DNA of 64,000 nt, from the NCBI GenBank assembly GCA_963741955.1, contig CAVUKB010000007.1:28246-92245 (forward strand), given 5' to 3'. A program made the position numbers and the translations under genes. Positions 2-64,000 of this stretch are shown here, piece by piece; position 1 is the stretch's first letter, and every line of letters starts with the position of its first letter. The notes below the pieces were generated by a model. The model saw only the letters and a program-made list of their open reading frames with translations, ran no database searches and was not told the DNA's origin. This DNA is from an uncultured Acidobacteriota bacterium (GTDB taxonomy: Bacteria; Acidobacteriota; Thermoanaerobaculia; Gp7-AA8).

Positions 2-3000
2 TCCTCCGGGAGCAGCTGGCAGGTCACGCCGCTCGCCGGATCGATCGCACCGGGGCATTACTATCTGGTGCAGGAAAACGCGGGCAGCGGGGGCTCGGTG
101 AATCTTCCCGCTCCCGACGCGACGGGGGGCATCTCGATGTCCGCGTCGTCGGGTAAAGTGGCGCTGGCGGCTTCGGCCTCTCCCCTCGCCGGGACGTGTC
201 CGTCCGTCGTCGACTTCGTCGGATTCGGTTCGGCCAACTGCTTCGAAGGAGCCGCGGCCACACCCGGCCTGTCGAACACAACCGCGGCCTTCCGGAATGA
301 AGATGGGTGCGCGGACACGGACGACAACACGGGAGACTTCTCGACCGGCAGCCCCTCGCCCCGCAACAGCGCCTCGCCGGTGCATTCGTGCGGAGCGGTC
401 GTTCCATCACCCCCGACGGGCATCGGCCAGGCCGATCCGAACAGCGTCAGTCCGGGAGCCGTGACCCTGCTCACCGTGACCGTGACCGCGGGGACGCTTC
501 CGCCGAGCACGGGGATCACTGTGGCCGCGGACCTCGGGTCGATCGGCGGAGTCTCGTCGCAGCCGTTCTACGACGACGGCACGCACGGCGACATCACCGC
601 GGCCGACGGCACGTATTCGTTCGCCGCTCACGTCGCGAGCTCGACACCTCTCGGCGCGACGAGCCTTCCGGTCCAGATCGGCGACGCGGAAGGGAGAAGC
701 TCCACGACGACGATCGACTTCAGTGTCGATTCGCCGACCCTCGCTCCCGGAACCGTCGTCATCAGCCAGATCTACGGAGGCGGCGGGAACTCGGGAGCGA
801 CACTGAAGAACGATTTCATCGAGCTCTTCAACCGTAGCGACTCACCGGTCGATCTCAACGGATGGAGTGTCCAGTACATCAACTCGAGCGGGTCGTTCGA
901 CGGTGCGATGACTCTCCTCTCCGGAGTGATCGAGCCGCACGGCTACTTCCTGATTCAGGAAGCGCAGGGGACTGGAGGAACGCTCGACCTCCCGACTCCC
1001 GATCTCTCCGGCGCGATCGCGATGGGCGCGGGCGGCGGGAAGATCGCACTGGTCGCATCGGCGGCCGCGCTCAGCGGCGCGTGCCCGACCGGAGGGGGGA
1101 TCATCGATTTCGCAGGCTACGGCAATGCGAACTGTTCCGAAACGACCTCCATCGGAAATCTTTCGAATACCACCGCCGCGTTCCGTAAATCGGGCGGCTG
1201 CAAAGAGACCAACGACAACGCCCACGACTTCTTCGTCGCCGCTCCCGCGCCGCGGAACTCCTCGACGCCGGTGAACGACTGCAGCACGGTCGAGCCGCCG
1301 TCGGCCCCGCATGTGGTGATCAGCCAGATCTACGGAGGCGGCGGAAACTCCGGCGCGGTGTACAGCAACGACTTCGTCGAGCTGTACAACCCGACCGCAG
1401 CGGCAGTCGATCTCGAGAACTGGTCGATTCAATACGCGTCGTCCACCGGGAACACCTGGGGTTCGAACAGCCAGCCTCTGGGCGGAGTGATCGAGCCCGG
1501 CGGCTACTTCCTGATCGAGCTCGGCGCCGGTGCCGGAGGGGGCACTCCCGTTCCGTCGCCCCGCATCGTGAGCGACATCAACATGAGCGCTTCGAGCGGG
1601 AAGCTCGCGCTGGTGAGACGGGTCGAAGGGCTCACCGGCAACTGTCCGATCGGCGATCCCTTCCTGGTCGACTTCATCGGTTACGGGTCGGCCGACTGTT
1701 ACGAAGGGGGACTGAACGCACCTTCGCTGAACAACTCTCAGTCACTTCTCCGGGCCAATGGCGGGGAGACCGACACAGACCAGAACAGTGACGACTTCAC
1801 CCGCGGCACGCCCGACCCGCGCGGGAGCGGAGCTCTGGTCGATCTCGCTCCGCGCATTACGGGCGTCGATCCTTCCGGAGCGGACGCTCCGTTCGACGCG
1901 AGCGTCACCATCAACTTCAGCGAGCCGGTGATGGTCACCGGGCCGTGGTTCACCATCGGATGTTCGAGCTCCGGTCCGCACAGTGACGTCGAAGTGGCAT
2001 CCGCATTCTCGGCAAGCACGTGGATTCTCACGCCCAACGTCACGCTCATACCGGGCGAGCTCTGTACGGTGCACGTCGTCGGAGGCCTGATCACGGATCT
2101 CGACGGTGCTCCTCAGAATCTCCCTTCGGACGTCGAATGGACGTTCACCGTCGCGACGGGGACACCGGTGGAGACGGCCGGTGTTCATCTCACGATGGGA
2201 ATCCCGTCGAATGCGTCGCTCGACGATCCCGACGACTACCTGATGGAAAAGCCGGAGTTCGCGCTCTCGTACAATCGGGATCGCGGCACGGCGAACTGGG
2301 TGAGCTGGCACCTGAGTGACGAGTGGACCAGTGGTGGCTCCGGTGGCCGGACCGACACGTTCCGCCCCGATCCGGCGCTGACGCGCGAGTGGTACCGCGT
2401 CCTTCAAACCGACTACGCGGGCTCCGGTTTCGACCGCGGCCACATGTGCCCGAGCGCCGATCGCACCGCGGACATTCCGGTGAATCAGGCGACGTTCCTG
2501 ATGGCCAACATGGTCCCGCAGTCTCCGGACAACAACCAGGGACCGTGGGAGCAGTTCGAGAGCGATCTCCGCGCGCTCCTTCCCGGGAACGAGATCTACA
2601 TCGTCTCCGGGCCGGAAGGAATCGGAGGGAGTGGCAGCAACGGGTACGCGGAGACCATCGCCGGCGGGCACGTCACCGTTCCCTCCAGCACATGGAAGGT
2701 CGCCCTGGTGCTCCCGAAGATGAATGGCGATGACGTGTCGAGGGTCACGGCTGCAGTACGGACCATCGCCATCGACATTCCGAACGTTCAGGGAATCCGG
2801 ACCGATCCATGGACGAAGTACCTCACCACGGTACGATCGATCGAGGACCGTACCGGGTACGACTTCTTCTCCAACGTTCCGGAGATCGTCCAGAACAGCA
2901 TCGAGGAAGGGGTGAACGGCGCGAATCCGCCGGGAGTCGCGGATCAGACCGAGACCGTCGAAGCGGGAACCGCGACGCCGCTGCTCCTGATGGCGGTCTC

Positions 3001-3541
3001 GCCGAATGACGGACCACTGACGTACTCGATCCTGACGGAGCCGGCTCATGGTGAGCTCACCGGCGCCAGCTCCGAGGCGACTCACACCTACACCCCGGCG
3101 ACGTGGTTCGTCGGTGAAGACGCGTTCACATTCCGCGTCAGTGACGGGACGAGCGATTCGATCCCCGCGACGGTCCACCTCGACGTGGTCGATACGACTG
3201 CGCCGGTGATCTCGACCCTCGTGCCGAGTCTCACTCGCCTCTGGCCGGTCAACCACAAGATGGTCGGCGTGACGCTGGAGTACTCGGTGACCGATCTCGG
3301 AGACGATTCGCCGGTCTGTTCGCTGCACGTCATGAGCAACGAATCGCCGGACGGGACGGGCGACGGTACGACCTCTCCCGACTGGGAGGTCACGGATGCC
3401 CATCACCTCCTGCTGCGGGCCGAGCGTGCCGGAACGGGCAACGGCCGGGTCTACACGATCGGCGCGGAGTGCGCAGATCGGTTCGGAAATCTCTCGACCA
3501 GCGACGAAGTGACGGTCACCGTCCCGAAGTCGCTGGATTGA
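2..3541 (+). CDS. Secreted DNA/RNA non-specific endonuclease with N-terminal lamin-tail (LTD) repeats, Ig-like and cadherin-like domains. The gene is 5'-truncated by the window edge.
   Basis: The reading frame is open from base 2 and continues the LTD pattern (GSIAPGHYYLVQE). There are about 2.5 LTD repeats (VVISQIYGGGGNSGA...NDFIELFN...DLNGWSVQY...GVIEPHGYFLIQ). The NUC-family active-site motifs DRGHMCPSADR and FLMANMVPQSPDNNQGPWEQFE are present. C-terminal Ig/cadherin-like segments follow. Confidence 0.8.
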   Translation, partial: SSGSSWQVTPLAGSIAPGHYYLVQENAGSGGSVNLPAPDATGGISMSASSGKVALAASASPLAGTCPSVVDFVGFGSANCFEGAAATPGLSNTTAAFRNEDGCADTDDNTGDFSTGSPSPRNSASPVHSCGAVVPSPPTGIGQADPNSVSPGAVTLLTVTVTAGTLPPSTGITVAADLGSIGGVSSQPFYDDGTHGDITAADGTYSFAAHVASSTPLGATSLPVQIGDAEGRSSTTTIDFSVDSPTLAPGTVVISQIYGGGGNSGATLKNDFIELFNRSDSPVDLNGWSVQYINSSGSFDGAMTLLSGVIEPHGYFLIQEAQGTGGTLDLPTPDLSGAIAMGAGGGKIALVASAAALSGACPTGGGIIDFAGYGNANCSETTSIGNLSNTTAAFRKSGGCKETNDNAHDFFVAAPAPRNSSTPVNDCSTVEPPSAPHVVISQIYGGGGNSGAVYSNDFVELYNPTAAAVDLENWSIQYASSTGNTWGSNSQPLGGVIEPGGYFLIELGAGAGGGTPVPSPRIVSDINMSASSGKLALVRRVEGLTGNCPIGDPFLVDFIGYGSADCYEGGLNAPSLNNSQSLLRANGGETDTDQNSDDFTRGTPDPRGSGALVDLAPRITGVDPSGADAPFDASVTINFSEPVMVTGPWFTIGCSSSGPHSDVEVASAFSASTWILTPNVTLIPGELCTVHVVGGLITDLDGAPQNLPSDVEWTFTVATGTPVETAGVHLTMGIPSNASLDDPDDYLMEKPEFALSYNRDRGTANWVSWHLSDEWTSGGSGGRTDTFRPDPALTREWYRVLQTDYAGSGFDRGHMCPSADRTADIPVNQATFLMANMVPQSPDNNQGPWEQFESDLRALLPGNEIYIVSGPEGIGGSGSNGYAETIAGGHVTVPSSTWKVALVLPKMNGDDVSRVTAAVRTIAIDIPNVQGIRTDPWTKYLTTVRSIEDRTGYDFFSNVPEIVQNSIEEGVNGANPPGVADQTETVEAGTATPLLLMAVSPNDGPLTYSILTEPAHGELTGASSEATHTYTPATWFVGEDAFTFRVSDGTSDSIPATVHLDVVDTTAPVISTLVPSLTRLWPVNHKMVGVTLEYSVTDLGDDSPVCSLHVMSNESPDGTGDGTTSPDWEVTDAHHLLLRAERAGTGNGRVYTIGAECADRFGNLSTSDEVTVTVPKSLD

Positions 3542-3559
3542 CGTTTCGCTGATCCGGCG

Positions 3560-4420
3560 ATCATGGATCCGCACCGCTCGGGAACCTTGCAGGTTGAGGG
3601 GTGCGGATCCTCCGATCCGCGGCGAGAATCGCGTTCGAGCGCAATGAGACGGCGCTGTCGGCTGAGGCGAAGCCGCTCTCGCGAGACTCGCGCACTCCAC
3701 CGACGCTGCGCGCAACGCGACAGTCTCCGTCTTCCTCGGCTTCGACACGATCGTCGCCACTCGGGACCCCCGCAGATTGAGGGGTGCAGATCCTCCGATC
3801 TGCCGCGGACGTGGTGTTCGAGCGCAATGAGACGGCGCTGTCGGCTGAGGCGAAGCCGCTCTCGCGAGACTCGCGCATTCCACCGACGCTGCGCGCAACG
3901 GGACAGTCTCCGTCTTCCTCGGCTTCGACATGATCGTCGCCACTCGGGACCCCCGCAGATTGAGGGGTGCAGATCCTCCGATCTGCCGCGGACGTGGTGT
4001 TCGAGCGCAATGAGACGGCGCTGTCGGCTGAGGCGAAGCCGCTCTCGCGAGACTCGCGCATTCCACCGACGCTGCGCGCAACGGGACAGTCTCCGTCTTC
4101 CTCGGCTTCGACATGATCGTCGCCACTCGGGACCCCCGCAGATTGAGGGGTGCAGATCCTCCGATCTGCCGCGGACGTGGTGTTCGAGCGCAATGAGACG
4201 GCGCTGTCGGCTGAGGCGAAGCCGCTCTCGCGAGACTCGCGCATTCCACCGACGCTGCGCGCAACGGGACAGTCTCCGTCTTCCTCGGCTTCGACATGAT
4301 CGTCGCGGCGGATCAGAGGATCCGCACCCCCTCGGGGTCCCTGCAGGTTGACCCCCGAATTCCACCGACGCTGCGCGCAACGCCGCGGTCTCCGTCTTCC
4401 TCGGCTCCCCTCGCGCGGAG
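3560..4420. repeat. Intergenic tandem repeat array: 183-bp unit, about 4.6 copies. Each unit contains short hairpins, and the array is bracketed by a ggatccgcacc...ggtgcggatcc palindrome.
   Basis: Units start at about 3593, 3776, 3959 and 4142, exactly 183 bp apart, plus a partial diverged fifth copy. Copies are near-identical. ORFs through the array on both strands give repeating Arg-rich peptides and are unlikely to be coding. Confidence 0.85.
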
Positions 4421-4550
4421 TCGGCCGCGGGCGGGCTTTCCGAGGAGGAATCACGAACCCGCCGATCGCGAACTGGTCCGCAATTCGCATCGGCTCTGTC
4501 CGCCAGCCGGAACGTCAACACCTAAATCCGCCGTCGAACAGGAGCGTCGA

Positions 4551-6836
4551 ATGAGCACCGTCGAACCGCAAGCGCCCTCTCTCCCGGAGTTCGAAAAAGA
4601 AGTCGCCGAAACGCAGGAATGGCTCGACAGCCCCCGCTTCCGGGAGATCACCCGTCTCTACTCCGCACGACAGGTCGTCGAGCAGCGCGGCACGATCCGC
4701 ACGGAATACAGCGTCGCTCGCGACGCCGCGGTTGCTTTTTACGACCGCCTCCGCGAGCTCTTCCGCGAAAAGAAAGCGGTCACCACGTTCGGTCCCTATT
4801 CGCCCGGACAGGCGGTCGCCTTGAAGCGCATCGGAATCGAGGCGATTTACCTCGGCGGTTGGGCGACGTCGGCCAAGGGCTCGACCCACGAAGATCCCGG
4901 ACCCGATCTCGCCAGCTATCCCCTCAGTCAGGTCCCGGATGAGGCAGCGGTTCTGGTCCGCGCGCTCCTCGCGGCGGACCGCAACCAGCAGTTCCTTCGG
5001 TCGCGGATGAGCGAACAGCAACGGGCCAAGACGCCGGTCTACGATTTCCGCCCGTTCATCATCGCCGATGCAGATACGGGACACGGAGGCGATCCGCACG
5101 TACGGAATCTCGTGCGGCGCTTCGTCGAGGCAGGGGTGTCCGGGTACCACATCGAGGACCAGCGGCCGGGGACGAAAAAGTGCGGACATCAGGGGGGGAA
5201 GGTCCTGGTCGGATCGGACGAACAGATCAAGCGCCTGAACGCGGCGCGCTTTCAGCTCGACGTGATGCGCGTCCCTGGAATCATCGTGGCGCGAACGGAT
5301 GCCGAAGCGGCGACTCTCATCGACAGCCGCGGAGACGAGCGCGATCAGCCGTTCATCCTCGGCGCGACGAACGTGAACCTTCCCGCGTACAAGGCTGCGT
5401 TTCTCGCGCTGATGCGCCGGTTCCACTCACTCGGGGTGAAAGAACTGAACGGGTTCATGCTCTACGAACCGTCGGATGAAGAGATGCGGGACGCCGACGA
5501 GTGGCTCGAGCGGACCGGTCTGGCCGCCGAGGCGAAGGGAGCCATCGATCGGATCACCCGGAATGAAGGTTTCTCGGTCGATGCGCTCTTCGACAGCGTT
5601 GCGTCGCATCTGATCGAGATCTGGGAGGCGGAGGCGGGGCTCGAGACGTACAGCGAGGCGGTTGCGGACGTACTCGAGTTCCAGCAGAGCGAAGGCGAAC
5701 CGATCGAGATGACGCCGGAGGAATGGCGGATCTACGCGTCGCGCGCGTCTCTCTACGCGGCCCGGAAGACGGCGCGCTCGCTCGGAGTGAACATCGTCTG
5801 GAACTGCGAGCACGCGAAGACGCCGGACGGCTACTACCAGGTCCGTGGCGGAATCGAGTACGCCATCGCGAAGTCACTGGCTGTCGCCCCCTTCTCCGAC
5901 ATTCTCTGGATGGAAACGAAGACGGCGGATCTCGCCGACGCGAAGAGATTCGCGGACGCGATCCACGCGCGGTTCCCGGACAAAATGCTCGCCTACAATC
6001 TCTCGCCCTCCTTCAACTGGGATTCCACCGGAATGACTGATGACGACATGCGGGCGTTCCCCGGTGAGCTCGGTAAGATGGGATTCGTCTTCAACTTCAT
6101 CACCTATGGTGGCCATCAGATCGACGGACTGGCGGCAGAGGAGTTCGCGACCGCGCTGCGGCAGGACGGGATGCTCGCGCTCGCGAGGCTGCAGCGGAAG
6201 TTCCGGCTGGTCGAGTCGCCGTACCGCACGCCCCAGACGCTGGTCGGCGGCCCCCGTCTCGATGCCGCGCTCGCCGCATCGTCCGGCCGGACCGCCACCA
6301 CGAAGGCGATGGGGAAAGGATCGACGCAGCACCAGCATCTGATCCAGACCGAAGTCCCGAAGAAGCTGCTCGAGGAGTGGCTCGGAATGTGGGCCGACTA
6401 CTACCAGCTGCGAGGACCTCTCACCGTGGATCTGAGGCCGCAGCGGGCGGGGTCAGAGCTTCTGGAGCTGGCCATCGTGCGCAGCGACGAGAAGGAGGCG
6501 AACGTCATCTTCGCACCGATCCTGGACCGGCGGGAACGGACGATTCTTTCCGTACGCGACCAGAACACGTTCGACGAAGAGCTTCGAAGAAAGCGGCTGA
6601 TGACGCTGATCCACCTCTTCCTGATCCACCGCTACAAAGCCGAGTCGGTGCACTACGTCACTCCGACCGAGGACAACCAGTACCAGACCTCGAAGATGAA
6701 GTCGCACGGGATCTTCAGCCAGGTGAACACGGAGGTGGGACAGATCATCGTTGCGGATGTGAATCACCCGCGGATCGCCGAGCTCCTCGCGCCGGACCGC
6801 GAAGCTCTGTGGAAGTTGATCCGGAAAGAGGGGTAG
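4551..6836 (+). CDS. aceA: Isocitrate lyase, long form (ICL2/AceAb-like, about 761 aa)
   Basis: [12 protein letters not shown] catalytic signature. N-terminal MSTVEPQ... typical of ICL. ATG at 4551 with a GGAG RBS. The track ORF from 4296 is an upstream extension into the repeat array. Confidence 0.9.
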
Positions 6837-7017: not shown

Positions 7018-7848
7018 TCATTCGGCACCCGGAACGATGACGGTGACGTGCTGAGTGATGTCACTCGTCACCGTCATCATTGTCCAGTAAGGCACATCCC
7101 CGTCGGGTGGTATCACTTCGATGCCTGCATCGTCCGGGATCACGCCAGCGGGCAAATCACCTGTCAGATCGTAACTCGCGGCATACCACGGGAAACTCGA
7201 ATCCGCATCGCTATCGCAGTGCGAGCCGTCGGCCCAAGTCCACGGTAAGGTCATGCTGCTGATCGTGCTACCGTCCTTGGTCTTGAATAACCTCACTCTG
7301 AACGTTCGCACATCGTCGCAGAAACGTTCTGTGAACCGGTAGATTCGGATGGACAGTCGGAAGCCCGAGGTCAACGGGATAGGTGCGAACCAGGTAGCCC
7401 CGCGGCGAACGTCGCGGGAACGAACGACCGGAATCGAGGTCCCCCACGTCGTTTCGGCGCGCGAGGAGTCGCGTACGCCCAACGAGAACGAGACCTGTGC
7501 GGCCACGTCAGCATTCACGTACAAGAGGCGCGATGGGAGGGCGAATGCGAAATCGCGGTTGTCCGGATGGAGCTCCTCGGCCGCTCCGGGAGCGAGCAGA
7601 CGGTCGTGCCCGCAGGGAATCGAGGCTCCACAATCGATGACTTCTCCGCTTACCTCGAAGTAGAGCGACAAGGCTCGCTCGAGCCCATTCGTTACCCACA
7701 AGTGCGAACTCCAGTTCGAGCCAAATGCCCCGGGAACGTCATAATATACGGCAGGGACCAGTATCACTTCCCTGGGTGGATCAGCGGCAATACTCTTCGT
7801 GGCCACACAGGCCAGGCAAAGAGCAGCCAAGACGATACGGAAACTCAT
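7018..7848 (-). CDS. Secreted hypothetical protein (signal peptide MSFRIVLAALCLACVA)
   Basis: ATG at 7848 overlaps (ATGA) the stop of the upstream gene. N-terminal signal peptide. No recognisable family. Confidence 0.55.
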   Translation of the reverse strand: MSFRIVLAALCLACVATKSIAADPPREVILVPAVYYDVPGAFGSNWSSHLWVTNGLERALSLYFEVSGEVIDCGASIPCGHDRLLAPGAAEELHPDNRDFAFALPSRLLYVNADVAAQVSFSLGVRDSSRAETTWGTSIPVVRSRDVRRGATWFAPIPLTSGFRLSIRIYRFTERFCDDVRTFRVRLFKTKDGSTISSMTLPWTWADGSHCDSDADSSFPWYAASYDLTGDLPAGVIPDDAGIEVIPPDGDVPYWTMMTVTSDITQHVTVIVPGAE

Positions 7849-8456
7849 GAGCCTACCTCCTGATCGCATGGCCTCGTTCTCGCGAGCTTGATCTGGCCGG
7901 CGTGAAGAGGGTCGCCGGTATTCACCAACACCTGTGAGTACGTGAGAAGTTGGCTCCACACGTCGCCGGGGCTGAGGTTCGGATCGTGTGCATACGGAAC
8001 GGCGACGGTGGTGTGGCGGAACTCGGGGAGGTATTTCCATACCGGATCGGAGATGACCAGCTTCCCGTCCTCCTCGAGCATCATCACGCCGACGCTGACG
8101 ATCGCTTTCGTCTGGGACGCGATCCGGAACATCGAATCATCGCGCATCGGCACGCGCGCTTCGCGATCCCGTGCGCCGAACGTGTCGAGGAAGGCGATCT
8201 TCCCGTGCCGGGCCACCAGGATTACCCCGCCCGGGAGCCGGTCCTCCCGGACGTAGCGTTCCATCGTCGAGTGGAGTCGTTGCAGCCTTTCCGTGGAGAG
8301 CCCGACGCTCTCCGGTGTGGCCCGATCGAACGAGCTTCTCCCGGCCGTTTGTGCCGTCGCGAGCGACGCGACGAGAACGATCGAGACAGCGAGAAGGGTG
8401 GCCGCCGAAGCGACTCGGCGTCGAGAGCAGTCGAGGTTTTTCGGTTTCATCTTCAT
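7845..8456 (-). CDS. Serine hydrolase (beta-lactamase / class C family) N-terminal fragment, about 204 aa. Possibly truncated or a pseudogene.
   Basis: Signal peptide MKMKPK...ATAQTA. The SxxK motif FRIASQTKAI and typical LPGGVILVARHGKIA are present, but no YxN or KTG motifs follow before the stop. A GGAG RBS precedes the ATG at 8456. Confidence 0.5.
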   Translation of the reverse strand: MKMKPKNLDCSRRRVASAATLLAVSIVLVASLATAQTAGRSSFDRATPESVGLSTERLQRLHSTMERYVREDRLPGGVILVARHGKIAFLDTFGARDREARVPMRDDSMFRIASQTKAIVSVGVMMLEEDGKLVISDPVWKYLPEFRHTTVAVPYAHDPNLSPGDVWSQLLTYSQVLVNTGDPLHAGQIKLARTRPCDQEVGS

Positions 8457-8698
8457 CTCCGGACGAGCAGCGATCACGAGATATCTGAACGACTGCCAAC
8501 TTACTCCCCCGATCGGAGGCGAGGCAATCACGGGAATCTCTGTTACGTCTTCGCAACACCATTGACGGAGAAAGGCCGACGGCCCGGACGGCCCGTCGCC
8601 CTGTGCCTCGCGTCACAGTTTCGCCCGATTCGCCAACGATAGAGTCCTCCCGTAAGAGTGCCCGGATCCCGAACGATCCGGAGAGGAGACGTCCTTCA

Positions 8699-9982: not shown

Positions 9983-9998
9983 AAGAGAAGACGGTCCA

Positions 9999-10159
9999 GG
10001 AGTCTGCGCGGTAGAAACTGTCCTACTGCGAAAACGGATCAGCGGTCCAGATCCGTCCGGATTTTCGGCGAGTAGCCACCGCTACGCACCTCAAATTCGA
10101 ACGAAGTTGGCCTCGCTGCTCCGCCTTCTCGCGACGGACGTTCCTACCGTGCAGACTCC
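9999..10159 (+). mobile_element. MITE (A-type, about 161 bp) with 16-20-bp TIRs ggagtctgcgcggtagaaac / gtt(c/t)ctaccg(t/c)gcagactcc. Copy 1.
   Basis: Near-identical copies at 26272..26432 and 36393..36553. Its TIRs match the ends of the IS at 34798..36390. Confidence 0.8.
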
Positions 10160-10337
10160 TCGGCTCGCAAAGTTCCGGATTCGGAGCGAAGATGGGAAGC
10201 AGGAGCGGGCCGCGCGAGCGCGCGGTCCGTTCCGCCCCCTGAGCGTTCAGGCGAAGGGGAGGATTCGATCCGGGCTGAGATCGGAGTCGCCAAGGCGGAC
10301 GGGTCCGGCTCCCTGAGAGAGCCCTCGAGAGGGCCGC

Positions 10338-15389: not shown

Positions 15390-15530
15390 ACTTTCCGAGG
15401 ATCGGAAAAGCATCGCGGATCGAGGATTGAGGATCGCGGATCTGAAAAGCATCGCGGATCGAGGATTGAGGATCGCGTATCTGAGGAGCATTGGGGATCG
15501 GGGATCGGGGATCGGGGGTTGGGGAAAGCC
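15390..15530. repeat. Short tandem repeat: about 39-bp unit GATCGCGGATCTGAAAAGCATCGCGGATCGAGGATTGAG at about 2.7 copies, followed by (GGGGATCG)x3
   Basis: Seen directly after the stop of the 12164..15379 gene, in a convergent intergenic region. Confidence 0.7.
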
Positions 15531-23300: not shown

Positions 23301-23434
23301 GATCGAAGGGACTGGTCCAGGGAGACGTAGTGAACGACCTGGTCGCGATGTCCGAAGAACCGAACGTCAGGATCATGGAGACGAAGGCCCTGCTGTGCAA
23401 CCTCGAAAGCATCGGGGAAGCATCTGATATCTGA
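20357..23434 (+). CDS. fdhA: Formate dehydrogenase catalytic (molybdopterin) subunit, selenocysteine-containing. In-frame TGA at 20837..20839.
   Basis: ORFs 20279..20839 and 20852..23434 are in the same frame. CPYCGVGCG FeS motif. The sequence VSNQARI-TGA-HSSTVPGLGTSFGRGG aligns with E. coli FdnG/FdhF ...ARV-U-HGP(S/T)VA.LA..FGRGAM. The start could also be 20279. Confidence 0.8.
20851..20869 (+). promoter_or_regulatory. SECIS-like hairpin 11 nt downstream of the in-frame UGA
   Basis: ggugccc-GGUCU-gggcacc stem-loop with G/U in the apical loop, as in bacterial fdhF SECIS. Confidence 0.6.
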
Positions 23435-23591
23435 TATCTGATATCTATTATCGATTATCTGACACGATAATTACGATCGCTATTAATTCATTAGATATCA
23501 GTTATCAATAACGATTGGATATAAACACACAAACCACAGACCCGAATTACTGACAGATAATAGATAATAGATAACAGATAATAGATAAACC
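23435..23591. repeat. AT-rich island (far below the local ~68% GC) between fdhA and fdhB with direct repeats (GATATCT)x3 and (AGATAAT/C)x5 in inverted arrangement at its two ends
   Basis: tctgatatctgatatctgatatctattatcgattatc ... cagataatagataatagataacagataatagataaacc. Occupies the entire 157-bp fdhA-fdhB spacer. Confidence 0.7.
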
Positions 23592-25940: not shown

Positions 25941-26090
25941 CGACTCTTCCTTTCGCCCGGACGATGAACGGTGAGAGCTCCGGGCCGGGTCGTTTGCACG
26001 CCGATGTTATCAAAGTGTCGCGATGGAGGGTCATCTCCTCCGAGGCGGATTTTCGCATTCGGAGCAGGTTCTGCTGATGAGGAGGGGCCA

Positions 26091-26269
26091 GCCCGCATTT
26101 CTCACACCGTCTCGTCGCGAGGAGGCGGAGAGTGGCTTGGATGCAAGGCGCGCGCAGTTTCGGCGACGAAGGCATAGTGGTGACTATGTTGAGGAGCCGA
26201 AGCTGTGCGCAACGTGGCAGACAGGCCGCTATCCGTCTCCGCAGCAGAGACGATGTGAGAAATGCGGGC
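26091..26269 (+). mobile_element. B-type non-autonomous element (about 179 bp) with 16-bp TIRs gcccgcatttctcaca / tgtgagaaatgcgggc. Copy 1.
   Basis: Second copy at 34617..34795 (about 90% identical). Both are followed by TA and then an A-type TIR. Confidence 0.7.
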
Positions 26270-26271
26270 TA

Positions 26272-26432
26272 GGAGTCTGCGCGGTAGAAACTGTCCTACT
26301 GCGAAAGCGGATCAACGGTCCAAATCCGCCCGGATTTTCGGCGAGTAGCCACCGCTACGCACCTCAAATCCGAACGAATTTGGCCTCGTTGCTCCGCTTT
26401 CTCGCTACGGACGTTTCTATCGCGCAGACTCC
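26272..26432 (+). mobile_element. MITE A-type, copy 2
   Basis: About 95% identical to the copies at 9999 and 36393. Perfect TIRs. Confidence 0.8.
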
Positions 26433-26446
26433 TAGAAGTCCGATCG

Positions 26447-34059: not shown

Positions 34060-34617
34060 ATGGGTCGCTACATCCAGAAGGTATCGATCGGATCGAGGGA
34101 GACGTGGGTCGGCTGGATCCTCGACGGCATCGAAGGGGAGATCGACGGATTGACTCCGGCCGACGAGATGTCGGAAGAGGAGCTTGCCCTGAAAGGGGTC
34201 CGCGAGTTCCATCAGGCTCCGCGGGCCATGCTCGGTCAGGTCGAGAAGCGTCGTCGTCGCCGGATCCGGCTCTCGGCGCCCCTGCAGGCGAACGTCAATT
34301 CACGGACGGCGGAAGTGTGGGATCTGAGCTCGAGCGGAGTCGGGATCCAGCACCAGTTCAAGCTCAAACCCGCCACGGAGATCACGGTGGAGATCCAGGG
34401 CCCGGAAGGCCGGAGGTCACTCCGGTTCGAGGTGCTTCGCTGCGAGCTCTCCCGGAGTCTGAAGGCGACCGGAGAGATCCTCTACTACTCGGCGCTCAGA
34501 CTCGCGGATGGAGCGATGGACGCCGGCGAGTTTCTCCGGCGGTTGATGGACCGCAATGCGGACAACGCGTTCGGCCTCCCGGACGGGGCGGCGCGTTCAC
34601 GTCACGCATTCCTCTAG
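34060..34617 (+). CDS. PilZ domain protein (c-di-GMP receptor)
   Basis: RRRRRIR (RxxxR) and DLSSSGVGI (DxSxxG) motifs. AGGAGG RBS before the ATG at 34060. Confidence 0.6.
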   Translation: MGRYIQKVSIGSRETWVGWILDGIEGEIDGLTPADEMSEEELALKGVREFHQAPRAMLGQVEKRRRRRIRLSAPLQANVNSRTAEVWDLSSSGVGIQHQFKLKPATEITVEIQGPEGRRSLRFEVLRCELSRSLKATGEILYYSALRLADGAMDAGEFLRRLMDRNADNAFGLPDGAARSRHAFL

Positions 34618-34795
34618 CCCGCATTTCTCACACCGTCTCGTCGCGAGGAGGCGGAGAGTGACTTGGATGCAAGGCGCGCCCGGCTTCGGCGACGAAGGCA
34701 TAGTGGTGACTATGTCGAGGAGCCGAAGCGGGGCGCAACGCAGCAGACACACCGCTATCCGTCTCCGCAGCAGAGATGGTGTGAGAAATGCGGGC
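34617..34795 (+). mobile_element. B-type element, copy 2, directly 5' of the IS
   Basis: Same TIRs as 26091..26269. The junction reads gcgggc-TA-ggagtctgcgcggtag. Confidence 0.7.
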
Positions 34796-34797
34796 TA

Positions 34798-36390
34798 GGA
34801 GTCTGCGCGGTAGGACGAAACTTCGGCGCTTCCTGAAGATCTCGGAAGACGTCCACTCGCGAGCGGCACAACCGCGGCACCGAAGCGCCTTCAGGTTGAT
34901 GGTGCCGTTCTCGGGGAGTTGGCAGCGCGAAACACTTGTTCGGCGGGACTTTTCGGGGGTTGGATACTGCTCTGCCGCGGCTATTCGAGCGCAACCAGAG
35001 CGCTCATTCGCTTTAGATTGATCACCAGGCACACCAGAGCCCATTCGCCGGCAACTTTGCGCATCCCGCGGAGACTGAATCGTCGAAAGCCGAGAACGTT
35101 TTTGACCCAGCCAAACACCGGTTCAACGATTGCCTTTCGCCGGCGATAGACCGCCTTGCCTGGAGGTGAGTCCAACTTCTGCTTCATCCGCAGAGTCGCG
35201 GGGAGCGTCGTCTCAGCTGCGGCTTCTTTACCTTCTCGTCCGAGAGAAACATAGGCATCGATCTTCTTCTGCTCCAACTCGATGAACGAGGTTTCCGATC
35301 TGTAGCCGGCGTCTGCAACAACCTGGTCGGGAGTTGTTTCGCAATTCTGTTCGACCACCTCGACCAAAGGCAGGAGTGATCCGCTGTCCGCCGCAGATTG
35401 TGTGATCTCGAATCCAACGATGAGTTGGTTATAGGCATCAACTGCGATCTGCGCGTTGTAGCACTGCTGAAATCCTTCCTGGGACTTCATGATTCGGCTC
35501 TCGGAATCGGTGAAGTTTTCTTGCGCTTTGTCATCAGGTACGCCGAACTTCCGTTTGAATGGCTTACCCTTCTTCCTGGCCGGATCATCGTCGCCTTCGG
35601 AGCGACCATCCTTCGTGTCCTGTTCCCGCTGCCGTTGTTCGAGTCGCTCTCGTGCCTCTTTGATTTTTTGGATACGAGTCTCCCGGCGCTGGAGCTCTTC
35701 GGGCAACTCATCCCCGCGTCGATCAACTCCGTACTCGGCATCCTCCCGGGCATCCTCCTCCGCCGCGGTGGCCAAAATGTCCGCGATCTCCTTCTCGAGT
35801 TTTGCTTGTTCCTTCTTCATCCGATCGTAGCTCATCGCCTTGTGCTTGCTGGCATTCGCTCGGACCTTCGACCCGTCGATTGCAATCCTCCCGAGCGTAA
35901 CTAACCCTGTTTCCTGGGCGGTCCGAATGATCTGGACCAGTAAGGAGCTGAACGCGTCCACATGCTCGAGCCGAAAGTCGCAGATGGTTCGATGCGACGG
36001 AAAGTTCCCGGCCGCAAGATACCGGACGGCGACATCTTCATCGATCCGCCGGGCAATCTTGCGCGAGGAGAACGTTCCCGTCAGGTACGAATAGATGATC
36101 AACTTGAGCATCATCCTTGGCTCGTACGGCTGCTTCCGTCTCCCGTCGCCTTTGTACGGCTCGTAGAATGCACTCAGATCGAGCTGATCGACGATGTCGA
36201 AAACGAAGTGCGCCAAGTGACCCTCAGGGAGCCAGTCATATGGCGAGGGCGGAAGCAGCAGCGACTGCTCCGGTCGGTATGGCCTATACGTGGTCGGCAT
36301 GACCCAATCTTACCATATTATTGTTATTACTAATCATACCCTTTTATCATGTTCCTTTGCCGTGCACCGGTTTTCTACCGCGCAGACTCC
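34798..36390 (-). mobile_element. Complete IS element, IS1182-like (IS5 superfamily), about 1.6 kb, with TIRs ggagtctgcgcggtag shared by the A-type MITEs
   Basis: Left end ggagtctgcgcggtaggacgaaac. Right end gttttctaccgcgcagactcc. One DDE transposase ORF inside. Confidence 0.75.
34981..36300 (-). CDS. IS1182/IS5-superfamily DDE transposase
   Basis: N-terminal DUF772-like MMLKLIIYSYLTGTFSSRKIARRI. DGSKVRANAS. Coiled-coil insert. C-terminal VEPVFGWVKNVLGFRRFSLRGMRKVAGEWALVCLVINLKRM. Confidence 0.8.
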   Translation of the reverse strand: MPTTYRPYRPEQSLLLPPSPYDWLPEGHLAHFVFDIVDQLDLSAFYEPYKGDGRRKQPYEPRMMLKLIIYSYLTGTFSSRKIARRIDEDVAVRYLAAGNFPSHRTICDFRLEHVDAFSSLLVQIIRTAQETGLVTLGRIAIDGSKVRANASKHKAMSYDRMKKEQAKLEKEIADILATAAEEDAREDAEYGVDRRGDELPEELQRRETRIQKIKEARERLEQRQREQDTKDGRSEGDDDPARKKGKPFKRKFGVPDDKAQENFTDSESRIMKSQEGFQQCYNAQIAVDAYNQLIVGFEITQSAADSGSLLPLVEVVEQNCETTPDQVVADAGYRSETSFIELEQKKIDAYVSLGREGKEAAAETTLPATLRMKQKLDSPPGKAVYRRRKAIVEPVFGWVKNVLGFRRFSLRGMRKVAGEWALVCLVINLKRMSALVALE

Positions 36391-36392
36391 TA

Positions 36393-36553
36393 GGAGTCTG
36401 CGCGGTAGAAACTGTCCTACTGCGAAAGCGGATCAACGGTCCAAATCCGCCCGGATTTTCGGCGAGTAGCCACCGCTACGCACCTCAAATCCGAACGAAT
36501 TTGTCCTCGTTGCTCCGCTTTCTCGCTACGGACGTTTCTACCGCGCAGACTCC
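36393..36553 (+). mobile_element. MITE A-type, copy 3, separated from the IS right end only by TA
   Basis: Junction gactcc-TA-ggagtc forms a palindrome. Confidence 0.8.
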
Positions 36554-36657
36554 TAGCGGCGAGGAGGGATTCCGCGACGTGATTCGTCCCTCCCGGCGGA
36601 GTCGCTGAACCTTCGTCTCCCTCTTCTCTTCGGATCTCATGCGATAATCGCCCGGTT

Positions 36658-56325: not shown

Positions 56326-56460
56326 TCAGAGCCTGCGGGGCAGAAAACGTCCTGCTGAGACAGCGGATCAGCGGTCCGGATCGCTCCGGAACTCCGGCGC
56401 GCACCCGGCCGCGCTGCTCCTCTTTCTCGCAACGGGATTTCTGGCGTGCAGGATCCTGCA
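56326..56460 (+). mobile_element. Degenerate A-type MITE-like sequence upstream of, and overlapping, the 5' end of the 56488 gene
   Basis: gcctgcggggcagaaaacgtcctgctgagacagcggatcagcggtcc... is about 70% similar to the MITE consensus. Confidence 0.4.
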
Positions 56461-62502: not shown

Positions 62503-62629
62503 TGACCGATATCGGGGCGGATGCTGCGAGTGTAGACCACACCGGAGTGGCGCACAAGAAAGTCGTGATGCGCCCGGGGCGCCGAAGCTGGCTGACGATT
62601 TGCTTCGAAAGACCGATTCTGAGGGACGA

Positions 62630-63802
62630 GTGAGAAATTTCGATGTCGCGATCGTCGGCTGCGGGCCCGCGGGAAACATCGCCGCGTGGCATCTTGCTGC
62701 ACGCGGAGTGGAGGTCGCCCTTCTCGAACGGGCCACCCTGCCGCGTCCGAAGACGTGCGGTGGCGGACTCTCACGCAAGACCCTCGAGGAGATTCCCTAC
62801 GACATCGATCCGGTCGTGGAGTCGGAGATCGAATCCGCATTCGTGACCAGCGGAGGCTCGACGTTTCTGCAGTCGAAAGAGCGGATCGGAGTCACGGTCT
62901 GCCGCGACAGGCTCGATTCATACATGGCCCGCCAGGCCGTCGAGAAGGGGGTTACGCTGCTCGAGTCGTGTACCCTCGAGAGTTTCAGCATCCGCCGGGA
63001 TCACGTCCGGCTCGAGACCTCACGCGGGGCATTCTCCGCCGGCGTTCTGATCGGCGCGGACGGCGTCTACAGCGGAGTACGCCGTGCACTCGACACCTCA
63101 TGCTCCCCTTTCTTCGCTCCCGCCATCGAGGCGCTGGTCTATGTCGAGCCGGCGCGCACCGGGCTCATTGACGGCGGCTGCATTCTCGATTTCGACGCAA
63201 TCCCCCATGGTTATGGCTGGGTGTTTCCGAAGCGGGATCATTACAACGTCGGACTCTATCGCTACCGGAGAAGCCGGGGCGGTCCCGGAATGCGGGGCAT
63301 GCTGCAAGCCTTCATCGAGCGCTTTCCCCAACTCCACTCCCCTCTCCGGGTCGTGACCAGGGGATATTCGATTCCGGTGCGGCGTGCGGCGACCGTGGTC
63401 GATCCCGGAGGCGTTCTTCTTGCCGGCGATGCGGCCGGGCTCGCGGAAAACGTCTATGGGGAAGGAATCTGTTTCGCTGTGCGAAGCGGGAGACTCGCCG
63501 CCGAAACCGTAGCCGCAACACTCGGCGGATCCGGCGATCTTTCCGAATATGCGCACCGACTGCGGCCGCTGATGCGTGAGCTGGCGCTCTCCAGGTTCAC
63601 CGCCTCGCTGGTGTATGCGGGCTCTCCGGGAATGCGACGGCGTCTCTCCCGCTCCGGACCGATCAGCCGCCGTTTCACCGGTCTTCTCACCGGAGACAAC
63701 GGCTACGCCGCATGTCTGATCGGAACGGCGGCATGTCTTCCGTTCGCGCCGCTCCTTCCGCAGAACCGTGAACAGAGGTCTCCTCTCGATCTGCAGACGT
63801 GA
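62630..63802 (+). CDS. FAD-dependent oxidoreductase, geranylgeranyl reductase family
   Basis: DVAIVGCGPAGNIAAWHLAARGVEVALLER Rossmann motif and KTCGGGLS. Start ambiguous: TTG at 62600 or GTG at 62630. Confidence 0.7.
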   Translation: MRNFDVAIVGCGPAGNIAAWHLAARGVEVALLERATLPRPKTCGGGLSRKTLEEIPYDIDPVVESEIESAFVTSGGSTFLQSKERIGVTVCRDRLDSYMARQAVEKGVTLLESCTLESFSIRRDHVRLETSRGAFSAGVLIGADGVYSGVRRALDTSCSPFFAPAIEALVYVEPARTGLIDGGCILDFDAIPHGYGWVFPKRDHYNVGLYRYRRSRGGPGMRGMLQAFIERFPQLHSPLRVVTRGYSIPVRRAATVVDPGGVLLAGDAAGLAENVYGEGICFAVRSGRLAAETVAATLGGSGDLSEYAHRLRPLMRELALSRFTASLVYAGSPGMRRRLSRSGPISRRFTGLLTGDNGYAACLIGTAACLPFAPLLPQNREQRSPLDLQT

Positions 63803-64000
63803 CCCCTGGCCCCAATGGCCCGAACTTAAGGGGCGCTGTGGGTGTTCACAGAGCAGATGCGTGGAGTTACTGCGCATCTGCCGCAGGTGTCGTCTCGTTG
63901 TGTTCTGAAGGCGATCTGCGCGGCCACGGCGGGAGCCGTGGCGCCCCTCGGAGAGGGGATCGTTCGCTGCCCAGCGAGCTCGCGCCGACTCCCGGCTGCG

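Follow-up and report, generated by a model that had tools for sequence, protein, structure and literature searches.

A dispersed palindromic repeat, locally amplified between a nuclease gene and aceA in an uncultured Acidobacteriota bacterium

In this study, we examine a tandem array of four 183-bp units that separates the gene of a secreted-type nuclease from aceA, the isocitrate lyase gene, in an uncultured Acidobacteriota bacterium of the class Thermoanaerobaculia (lineage Gp7-AA8). The array lies in a 64,000-nucleotide stretch of contig CAVUKB010000007.1 (assembly GCA_963741955.1), hereafter the window. We find that it is a dispersed palindromic repeat, locally amplified: homologous arrays stand at unrelated loci, and a diverged copy lies at the far end of the window itself. 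Its most probable identity, in our assessment, is a tandem cluster of a lineage-specific family resembling repetitive extragenic palindromic (REP) sequences and their hairpin-forming doublets (REPINs). We begin with the array and the element from which it is built, continue with the wider family and its comparison with known repeats, and then weigh the competing explanations.

The array and its units

Tandem Repeats Finder reports an array at 3577-4306 with a period of 183 bp, 4.0 copies and 97% matches (score 1353), the sole large array that it reports here, in a window of 63% G+C. In-register similarity, traced with a repeat finder, extends over 3566-4414, with the final copy at 67% identity; this fits the "about 4.6 copies" of a first-pass annotation, which a model had made from the sequence without database searches and which had also given the period of 183 bp over four units correctly. 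The units start at 3577, 3760, 3943 and 4126 (Tandem Repeats Finder, unit identities and alignment), and an nhmmer profile of the family described below matches them on the minus strand with E values of 1e-39 to 1e-45. Unit 2 is identical to unit 3, and unit 4 deviates only in its last 2 nt. Unit 1 agrees with units 2-3 at 167 of 183 positions (91%), with 13 of the 16 differences falling within its first 56 nt, so that the identity of "above 95%" claimed earlier applies to the array as a whole and not to this unit. Past unit 4, a degenerate last copy (4309-4414) consists of a REP arm (4306-4330), a copy of the spacer (4331-4351) and the 3' 55 nt of the unit (4358-4414), and lacks the middle part of the unit. 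The inverted motif that was said to recur in each unit does so as gcagatcctccgatctgc in units 2-4 and as the variants gcggatcctccgatccgc in unit 1 and gcggatcagaggatccgc in the tail, the unit 1 form differing from gcagatcctccgatctgc by a compensatory G-C/A-T change. Probes of 26 and 21 nt taken from the unit gave 0 matches in 100 shuffles.

Because the central units are identical, the first unit is 9% diverged and the last copy is decayed, the array points to repeated local duplication. Such an identical centre, flanked by older and degenerate edges, is what ongoing unequal recombination or replication slippage characteristically leaves. The first-pass annotation was right to offer a "satellite-like expansion" as one option.

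Two other readings of the repeats were considered and rejected. A CRISPR array can be set aside, as it was in the first pass, because units 2-4 are identical over all 183 nt and the array therefore has no unique spacers. A clustering of GATC sites of the Dam/SeqA type fails because the array is not an outlier against the window as a whole, where GATC is about fourfold over-represented (851 sites, where base composition predicts 217) and TCGA similarly so (780). The excess of GATC is a genome-wide property and not a feature of the array.

Anatomy and folding of the element

Three parts make up each unit: a spacer of 21 nt, CTCGGGACCCCCGCAGATTGA; the palindromic arm GGGGTGCAGATCCTCCGATCTGCCGCG, with a core that forms a 7-bp stem and a 4-nt loop; and a body of about 130 nt that holds TCTCGCGAGA and TGCGCGCA and is partly self-complementary. 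In a pattern search for the core palindrome GCRGATC-N4-GATCYGC, all five perfect sites fall within the array (3603-3620, 3786-3803, 3969-3986, 4152-4169 and 4308-4325), and the other matches in the window carry 2 mismatches. The copies include one G-C to A-T compensatory change, and the core is embedded in a conserved 27-mer. Folded by itself, the arm at 3600-3625 reaches -15 kcal/mol (z -3.1).

The two ends of the array show how these parts relate to a larger element. At the left edge stands a REP doublet (3553-3625), made of a degenerate inverted arm, a 21-nt spacer and the arm GGGGTGCGGATCCTCCGATCCGC; its hairpin has an RNA fold of -38.7 kcal/mol over 3556-3625 (z -3.2) and a DNA fold with z -4.3 over 3553-3625. 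This first hairpin begins 24 nt past the stop codon of the nuclease gene, and its 15-nt arms, which include ggatccgcacc at 3565 and ggtgcggatcc at 3600, are 93% complementary. In addition, the left edge (3598-3652) and the right edge (4276-4330) are inverted complements of each other along 55 nt, at 75% overall and at about 90% in the first 30 nt. The palindromic bracket noticed in the first pass is therefore real and more complex than described, combining an edge hairpin with long inverted edges. At the right end, unit 4 joins an inverted arm, GCGGCGGATCAGAGGATCCGCACCCC (4304-4330), followed by a spacer copy and the last 55 nt of the unit. As this inverted arm adjoins unit 4 only, the last unit alone has both arms, and 4141-4334 (minus strand) is the sole complete family element of the array, with two inverted REP-like arms around the body of about 130 nt in the alignment.

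A complete element thus measures about 186 nt, within a range of about 170-190 nt for the basic element, and has two inverted palindromic arms of 27-30 nt (GGGGTGCRGATCCTCYGATCYGCCGCG). Whether as single-stranded DNA or as RNA, the whole of it forms one long hairpin. The copy at 4141-4334 folds into a long hairpin as single-stranded DNA (-56.1 kcal/mol, z -4.0), and so does a complete element at 8445-8625 of a second locus, L097, introduced below (z -3.8). In the internal 183-bp units, 22 nt of one arm are missing and the 21-nt spacer is included. A single unit cut in the phase set by Tandem Repeats Finder folds no better than shuffles (z +0.4); this value is misleading, since that phase leaves out one arm and complete elements reach z of about -4. 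The first-pass annotation had suggested folding one unit as a check, and the outcome depends in this way on where the unit is cut. Its statement that the array holds conserved internal hairpins stands.

A dispersed family

An exhaustive phmmer search over 1.84 billion representatives, with a spurious 309-aa open reading frame (ORF) across the array as probe, returned two short orphan proteins, P0003 and P0004, from contigs of 0.54 and 1.47 Mb. By tblastn, P0003 spans three tandem copies of a sequence homologous to window 3597-3694, each read in a different frame; one frame is 84% identical over 31 aa, and because of the frame changes the underlying array must have a period of 209 nt. The copies read by P0004 have a period of 216 nt and carry the arm in both orientations, one of them read as GGADPLIRR. 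A word-index search with both proteins led on to P0006-P0009. DNA was obtained for two loci, L096 and L097 (ENA assembly ERZ25039483), which hold arrays of period 215-221 and 269 nt, and four further loci are seen as ORF translations only, on contigs of 0.13-1.47 Mb. The periods by locus are accordingly 183, 209, 215-221, 216, about 255 and 269 bp, and at each array locus the element is reiterated head to tail together with a linker stretch. P0006 and L096 share a common flank with arrays in different frames, which may reflect either strain variation or long-read indel error; this pair was not used as evidence.

The family resemblance is close in the arm and looser in the remainder. The 27-mer GGGGTGCAGATCCTCCGATCTGCCGCG is identical in window units 2-4, in four copies of L096 and in four copies of L097. 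The bodies at these two loci align in reverse orientation with the full length of the window unit, reaching 82.6% over 92 nt (blastn, E 7e-22), and the whole 188-nt element is about 70% identical to the elements of L096 (blastn and alignment). Both loci have the composition of the window (GC 0.63, tetranucleotide r 0.96); the tetranucleotide correlation of other acidobacterial and mycobacterial loci is 0.73-0.89. A second family locus lies in the window itself, at 63869-64000 on the plus strand, where it is cut by the window end. It is a diverged partial copy, recognised by nhmmer (E 1.1e-6 over 63869-63950) and by alignment, with a fold of z -3.2, and it stands about 67 nt downstream of an FAD-binding oxidoreductase gene (62600-63802, Pfam). 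A lone partial copy was found by nhmmer at L096 3414-3472. The search for the unit elsewhere in the genome that the first pass had proposed has thus yielded this second window locus and, in the same organism or its close kin, the arrays of L096 and L097.

Like all three loci with DNA, the second window locus is extragenic. The neighbours of these loci are unrelated: the nuclease gene and aceA at the array studied here, the oxidoreductase gene at the second window locus, tRNA-His/tRNA-Pro adjoining a radical-SAM/PqqD cluster at L097, and a Wzz/polysaccharide-export cluster at L096. None of the arrays in L096, L097 and the window ends at a terminus of the element; their ends lie within it, and in L096 and L097 within its body.

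A retained hairpin with changing stems

One of the arms varies among copies. Between the conserved ...GATTCGCGCGGC and GCGCCCCTCGG, the sequence of the stem is entirely different from copy to copy: AGATC/GATCT in the window array, CACGGC/GCCGTG in the window at 63.9 kb, GGAGT/ACTCC at L096 3.4 kb, GGATCCCGC/GCGGGATCC in L096 and L097, and GGATC/GATCC in L097. The hairpin is retained in every copy despite these unrelated stems. This persistence of the hairpin while its sequence changes suggests that what is maintained or recognised is the stem-loop as such, whether in single-stranded DNA or in RNA.

Assemblies and copy number

The repeat locus between the nuclease gene and aceA is present in two further, independent assemblies of the same strain, and for this reason we regard the repeat as real. 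In the short-read metagenome-assembled genome (MAG) GCA_049580305.1 (L001 7699-8341), the flanks are 100% identical, and the array is reduced to unit 1 plus a single copy of the identical units. A Logan contig (L002 1-60) breaks within the array; its start lies exactly 30 nt ahead of the first base at which unit 4 departs from units 2-3. Both outcomes are typical of short-read graph assembly when repeats are identical. The copy number of four rests on a single assembly. The comparison of copy number between strains proposed in the first pass could accordingly be made, with four units here and two in GCA_049580305.1; this difference is not evidence of polymorphism, because the missing units are the identical ones, as in short-read collapse, and collapse is what it looks like.

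Relation to known repeat families

The closest parallel is found in Pseudomonas fluorescens SBW25, in which 16 clusters of REPINs are tandemly repeated including flanking sequence, the largest having four REPINs and one REP over more than 700 bp, with a peak at 184 bp in the distances between neighbours (Bertels & Rainey 2011, PMC3116915). Both systems have inverted pairs of short palindromes that form a hairpin, an extragenic position, near-identical units repeated in tandem with flanking sequence, and several clusters with differing module lengths. They are alike even in size, the array here having four units and a partial one over 730-850 bp with a period of 183. They differ in that most REPINs of SBW25 are singlets in hundreds of copies, with RAYT (REP-associated tyrosine transposase) genes beside some clusters, whereas the present family, from the phylum Acidobacteriota, is seen almost only in arrays, has an element of about 186 nt instead of 71-110, and showed no RAYT in the parts scanned (less than 2% of the genome).

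In large REP clusters more generally, it is mostly dimers or singletons that are repeated in tandem along with the DNA beside them; REPs are found mainly downstream of ORFs, and many are plausibly transcribed (Di Nocera et al. 2013, PMC3733652). The GTAG and CGTC superfamilies of REPs resemble the present family in their stem-loops of 20-40 bp, in dimers of opposite orientation that fold into larger structures, in their tandem clusters and in their position mostly downstream of ORFs; the arms described here differ from them in having neither tetranucleotide at their ends. The bacterial interspersed mosaic elements (BIMEs) of Escherichia coli, and BIME-2 in particular, are built of palindromic units whose orientation alternates and between which two kinds of linker, about 10-30 nt long, take turns; the number of motifs varies, and the elements are extragenic, often just past a stop codon. 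The array shares with BIME-2 the extragenic position and the inverted palindromes that alternate with two kinds of linker, and departs from BIMEs in that one of its "linkers" is a conserved body about 130 nt long and in having no sequence similarity to them.

Miniature inverted-repeat transposable elements (MITEs) offer a further comparison, being likewise shorter than 300 bp, non-coding and present at several loci, with terminal inverted repeats of about 27-30 nt. The present element has inverted ends (about 27/30 nt); the 21-nt spacers that flank it are direct repeats, but they separate every unit too. No target-site duplication can be recognised, and no related full-length insertion sequence (IS) was found, in which respects the family seems to differ from MITEs. 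Lastly, mycobacterial interspersed repetitive units, known as MIRUs, measure 40-100 bp and occupy 41 loci in M. tuberculosis (PMC12065434), and Leptospira interrogans has non-coding satellite families (PMC6749651). These share with the present family head-to-tail, non-coding intergenic repeats at multiple loci with homogenised central copies, and differ from it in having a shorter unit that is not built around inverted palindromes.

Origin of the array

If the array is a cluster of a REP/REPIN-like family, the element would have spread through a mechanism that recognises hairpins in single-stranded DNA, of the RAYT or IS200-IS605 type or analogous to it, and the clusters would then have grown locally by unequal recombination or slippage. 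Any function would be generic and not specific to aceA, with transcribed hairpins protecting the upstream mRNA at its 3' end or terminating it there; a stop codon precedes each of the two window loci by 24-67 nt. Beside aceA, the cluster may merely fill the junction at which this gene lost its usual upstream partner, aceB.

Several points weigh against a REP/REPIN-like origin. Among 37 window ORFs from 16 kb onward and the region 7018-8531, none matches Y1_Tnp at E <= 1e-5, and the Pfam lists of window 1-16.8 kb (L001), L096 and L097 hold no Y1/RAYT gene, although these scans together covered less than 2% of the genome and their negative outcome says little. The arm GGGGTGCRGATCCTCYGATCYGCCGCG carries neither GTAG nor CGTC, the tags of most described REPs, and the element exceeds the usual length of a REPIN (71-110 bp in SBW25). 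Apart from the partial copy at L096 3414-3472, only arrays have been seen, whereas classical REPs are mostly singlets or doublets. About seven loci are documented, four of them solely via ORF translations; the placement of L096 and L097 in the same organism as the window is drawn from composition and sequence identity, and the generic role of hairpins at 3' ends is one that we infer.

A less favoured account of these observations, which we consider unlikely, is that the family is not a REPIN driven by a RAYT but a new, untagged, array-forming palindromic element of Acidobacteriota, of about 186 nt. Its hairpin, retained while the stem sequence is exchanged, would then point to a structure-specific recognition site for a nuclease, a transposase or an RNA-binding factor; alternatively, the element could serve the host in the protection or termination of mRNA 3' ends or in the structuring of the chromosome, like the gyrase-binding BIME-2.

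It seems improbable that the units act as functional structured RNAs, with the unit or the whole cluster transcribed as a small RNA or an RNA sponge, for example via its CCUCC loop. This loop resembles an anti-Shine-Dalgarno sequence, and its CUCC is conserved in most copies, but it is just 4 nt long and differs in the tail copy (AGAG) and in other copies of the family (GGGA, GCA). Hairpins kept with fully different stems amount to structural covariation, and complete elements fold far better than shuffles; against this, the internal 183-bp units, lacking one arm, do not (z +0.4). RNAalifold on 12 aligned elements recovered the two terminal hairpins and a closing stem, yet its covariation term of +0.67 gives no net support for a global structure, a weak test because the copies within a locus are too alike. 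Rfam 15 holds no matching family, whether searched over 3000-5000 by E value, which gave only microRNA and snoRNA matches at chance level, far below threshold, or over the whole window by gathering score. ARAGORN found no tRNA or tmRNA gene. Nor is there a promoter or terminator consensus in each unit: a consensus scan found no sigma-70-like promoter and no intrinsic terminator in the array, with terminator-like sites only inside aceA.

The aceA question

The genes on either side of the array are those named in the first pass, as Pfam confirms. The upstream gene (68-3541, plus strand, its 5' end cut by the window start) encodes a secreted-type non-specific endonuclease with Endonuclease_NS (9.9e-50), LTD and the Ig-like domains Big_5 and Big_9. 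The downstream gene is aceA (4551-6836, plus strand; ICL, 7.9e-127), which encodes a long-form isocitrate lyase of the ICL2 type with 761 aa, named "isocitrate lyase ICL2 [Thermoanaerobaculia bacterium]" by NCBI in a MAG with the gene on a 1.30-Mb contig, and has AGGAG 5 nt upstream of its ATG. A comparison with L003-L014 shows that aceB directly precedes aceA in many relatives among the Acidobacteriota, most of the closest Thermoanaerobaculia loci included. Here synteny is broken, with aceA following the nuclease gene and the repeat cluster (3542-4550), and the 64-kb window contains no malate synthase gene. A remnant of aceB upstream of aceA was sought and rejected: alignment scores were no better than those of random window segments, and only the region of the ribosome-binding site matches.

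This setting invites the reading that the first-pass annotation had preferred, an array of binding sites or small-RNA modules specific to aceA, in which the palindromes (GCAGATC-N4-GATCTGC and TCTCGCGAGA) would act as operators or enhancers through which a glyoxylate-shunt regulator works, for instance as upstream activating sites for a sigma-54-type promoter at 4474-4489. The array does lie 136 nt upstream of the aceA start, its palindromes occur nowhere else in the window, and aceA needs a new promoter, since in relatives it directly follows aceB. A sigma-54-like -24/-12 motif, TGGTCCGCAATTCGCA, is indeed present at 4474-4489 (score 17/21), 62 nt upstream of the aceA start and about 155 nt downstream of the last palindrome; only 14 such sites occur on both window strands, and this one is the sole hint of a role specific to aceA. 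However, the regions upstream of aceA in 27 acidobacterial relatives do not conserve the motif, and it may be due to chance. The region has no sigma-70-like promoter, and no gene for an enhancer-binding protein or another regulator is adjacent. Above all, the same elements form arrays at unrelated loci, beside tRNA genes, an export cluster and an oxidoreductase gene, and these unrelated contexts make a role specific to aceA unlikely; we give this reading little credence. The first pass had itself held that the idea would fall if the unit matched a known mobile-element terminus, and the dispersed family found here weakens it in that sense. An effect on aceA expression may still arise as a side effect.

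Still less probable is a one-off local minisatellite, that is, a variable number of tandem repeats derived from the local intergenic DNA and without relatives elsewhere. The identical central units with divergent edges would suit it, as would the early searches, all of them negative: BLAST found no other copy of the unit in the window, the unit is absent from all 80 aceA loci of relatives (BLAST and profile search), an exact 68-mer is absent from the GTDB representative genomes, nothing was found in plasmids, phages and viral contigs, and a scan of JGI metagenomes with a 21-mer, a poorly chosen probe, returned 13 chance matches in coding DNA. This explanation is refuted by the homologous arrays of L096 and L097, by the second locus of the window and by the ORF proxies, although local amplification remains part of the best one.

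Coding potential

The array does not behave as coding DNA, in line with the judgement of the first pass. The flanking genes both have a G+C content at third codon positions (GC3) of 0.81 and at second positions (GC2) of 0.43-0.54, against 0.62-0.70 for every phase of the array. A codon log-odds score trained on 12 long window ORFs gives +0.47 bits per codon for aceA and +0.31 for the nuclease gene, and -0.16 to -0.65 for the six frames of the array; Pfam has no match in its open frames. A decayed coding fragment was also considered, as two short plus-strand stretches have gene-like GC3, and was rejected for want of a significant match by tblastn against the window, the relatives and malate synthase or in a Pfam scan at E <= 10. 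We can therefore dismiss the notion that the 309-aa minus-strand ORF at 3561-4490, called by the source annotation and deposited in public databases as P0001, is a genuine repeat-protein gene: the period of 183 is a multiple of three and four of six frames are open across the array, but the ORF scores -0.195, no frame shows GC3 or GC2 asymmetry or a Pfam match, and the only "homologues" it has are themselves ORFs across this DNA family, read on either strand and in frames that shift, at periods not divisible by three (209 nt, for instance).

Other repeats in the window and in related loci

The window also holds a different dispersed element of about 167 nt, at 9996-10162, 26269-26435 and 36390-36556, with a diverged copy at 56329-56406. 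It has perfect 23-nt inverted ends (CTAGGAGTCTGCGCGGTAGAAAC...) and forms a near-perfect hairpin (-102 kcal/mol, z -12), in contrast to the family of the array. Its ends contain GTAG and start at CTAG, a tetranucleotide with 9 sites in the 64-kb window that is extremely rare apart from these ends. The element looks like a MITE or a REPIN of a family other than that of the array. One copy adjoins a gene for an IS5/IS4-like DDE transposase (DDE_Tnp_1, DUF772; 34981-36300, minus strand), and another stands beside one member of a 198-nt repeat of 93% identity (26090-26287 and 34616-34813); the hairpin element may derive from the insertion sequence of this transposase.

Shorter repeats occur as well. 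Between convergent genes, at 15399-15525, three copies of a 39-nt unit are followed by (GGGGATC) x 4.7, and two heptamer microsatellites, (ATCTGAT) x 5.9 at 23422-23462 and (AGATAAT) x 4.9 at 23555-23588, lie between the gene of a molybdopterin oxidoreductase and that of its Fe-S subunit. At L096, two more large non-coding satellites (416-1288 and 2007-2948) both flank 23S_rRNA_IVP genes, the first with a period of 95/191 nt in 9 copies and the second with a period of 116/225 nt in 8 copies and with (ATTTCGG)n; a heptamer run complementary to (ATTTCGG)n is present at L097 7971-8002. The lineage seems unusually rich in satellites.

Implications

Dispersed families of non-coding long-repeat satellites are rare in bacteria (prokaryotic satellite survey, PMC6749651), and the present family is for this reason worth recording, though it is not of a new kind. 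Its recognition has practical consequences for annotation and assembly. The deposited "hypothetical proteins" P0001, P0003, P0004 and P0006-P0009 are spurious ORFs across repeat arrays, with no homologues other than each other and with matches in shifting frames. Copy numbers that short-read MAGs give for such clusters cannot be relied on, as the arrays collapse (L001) or break (L002), and such arrays probably end long-read contigs as well (L096, L097). For the biology of aceA, the dispersed family removes the tempting but probably wrong reading of this DNA as a dedicated control region. For the lineage, it documents a REP/REPIN-like family in Thermoanaerobaculia, the surveys of tagged REPs considered here reporting no such repeats in Acidobacteriota, and as an untagged and cluster-prone family it could help to test how REP clusters originate and which enzymes mobilise them.

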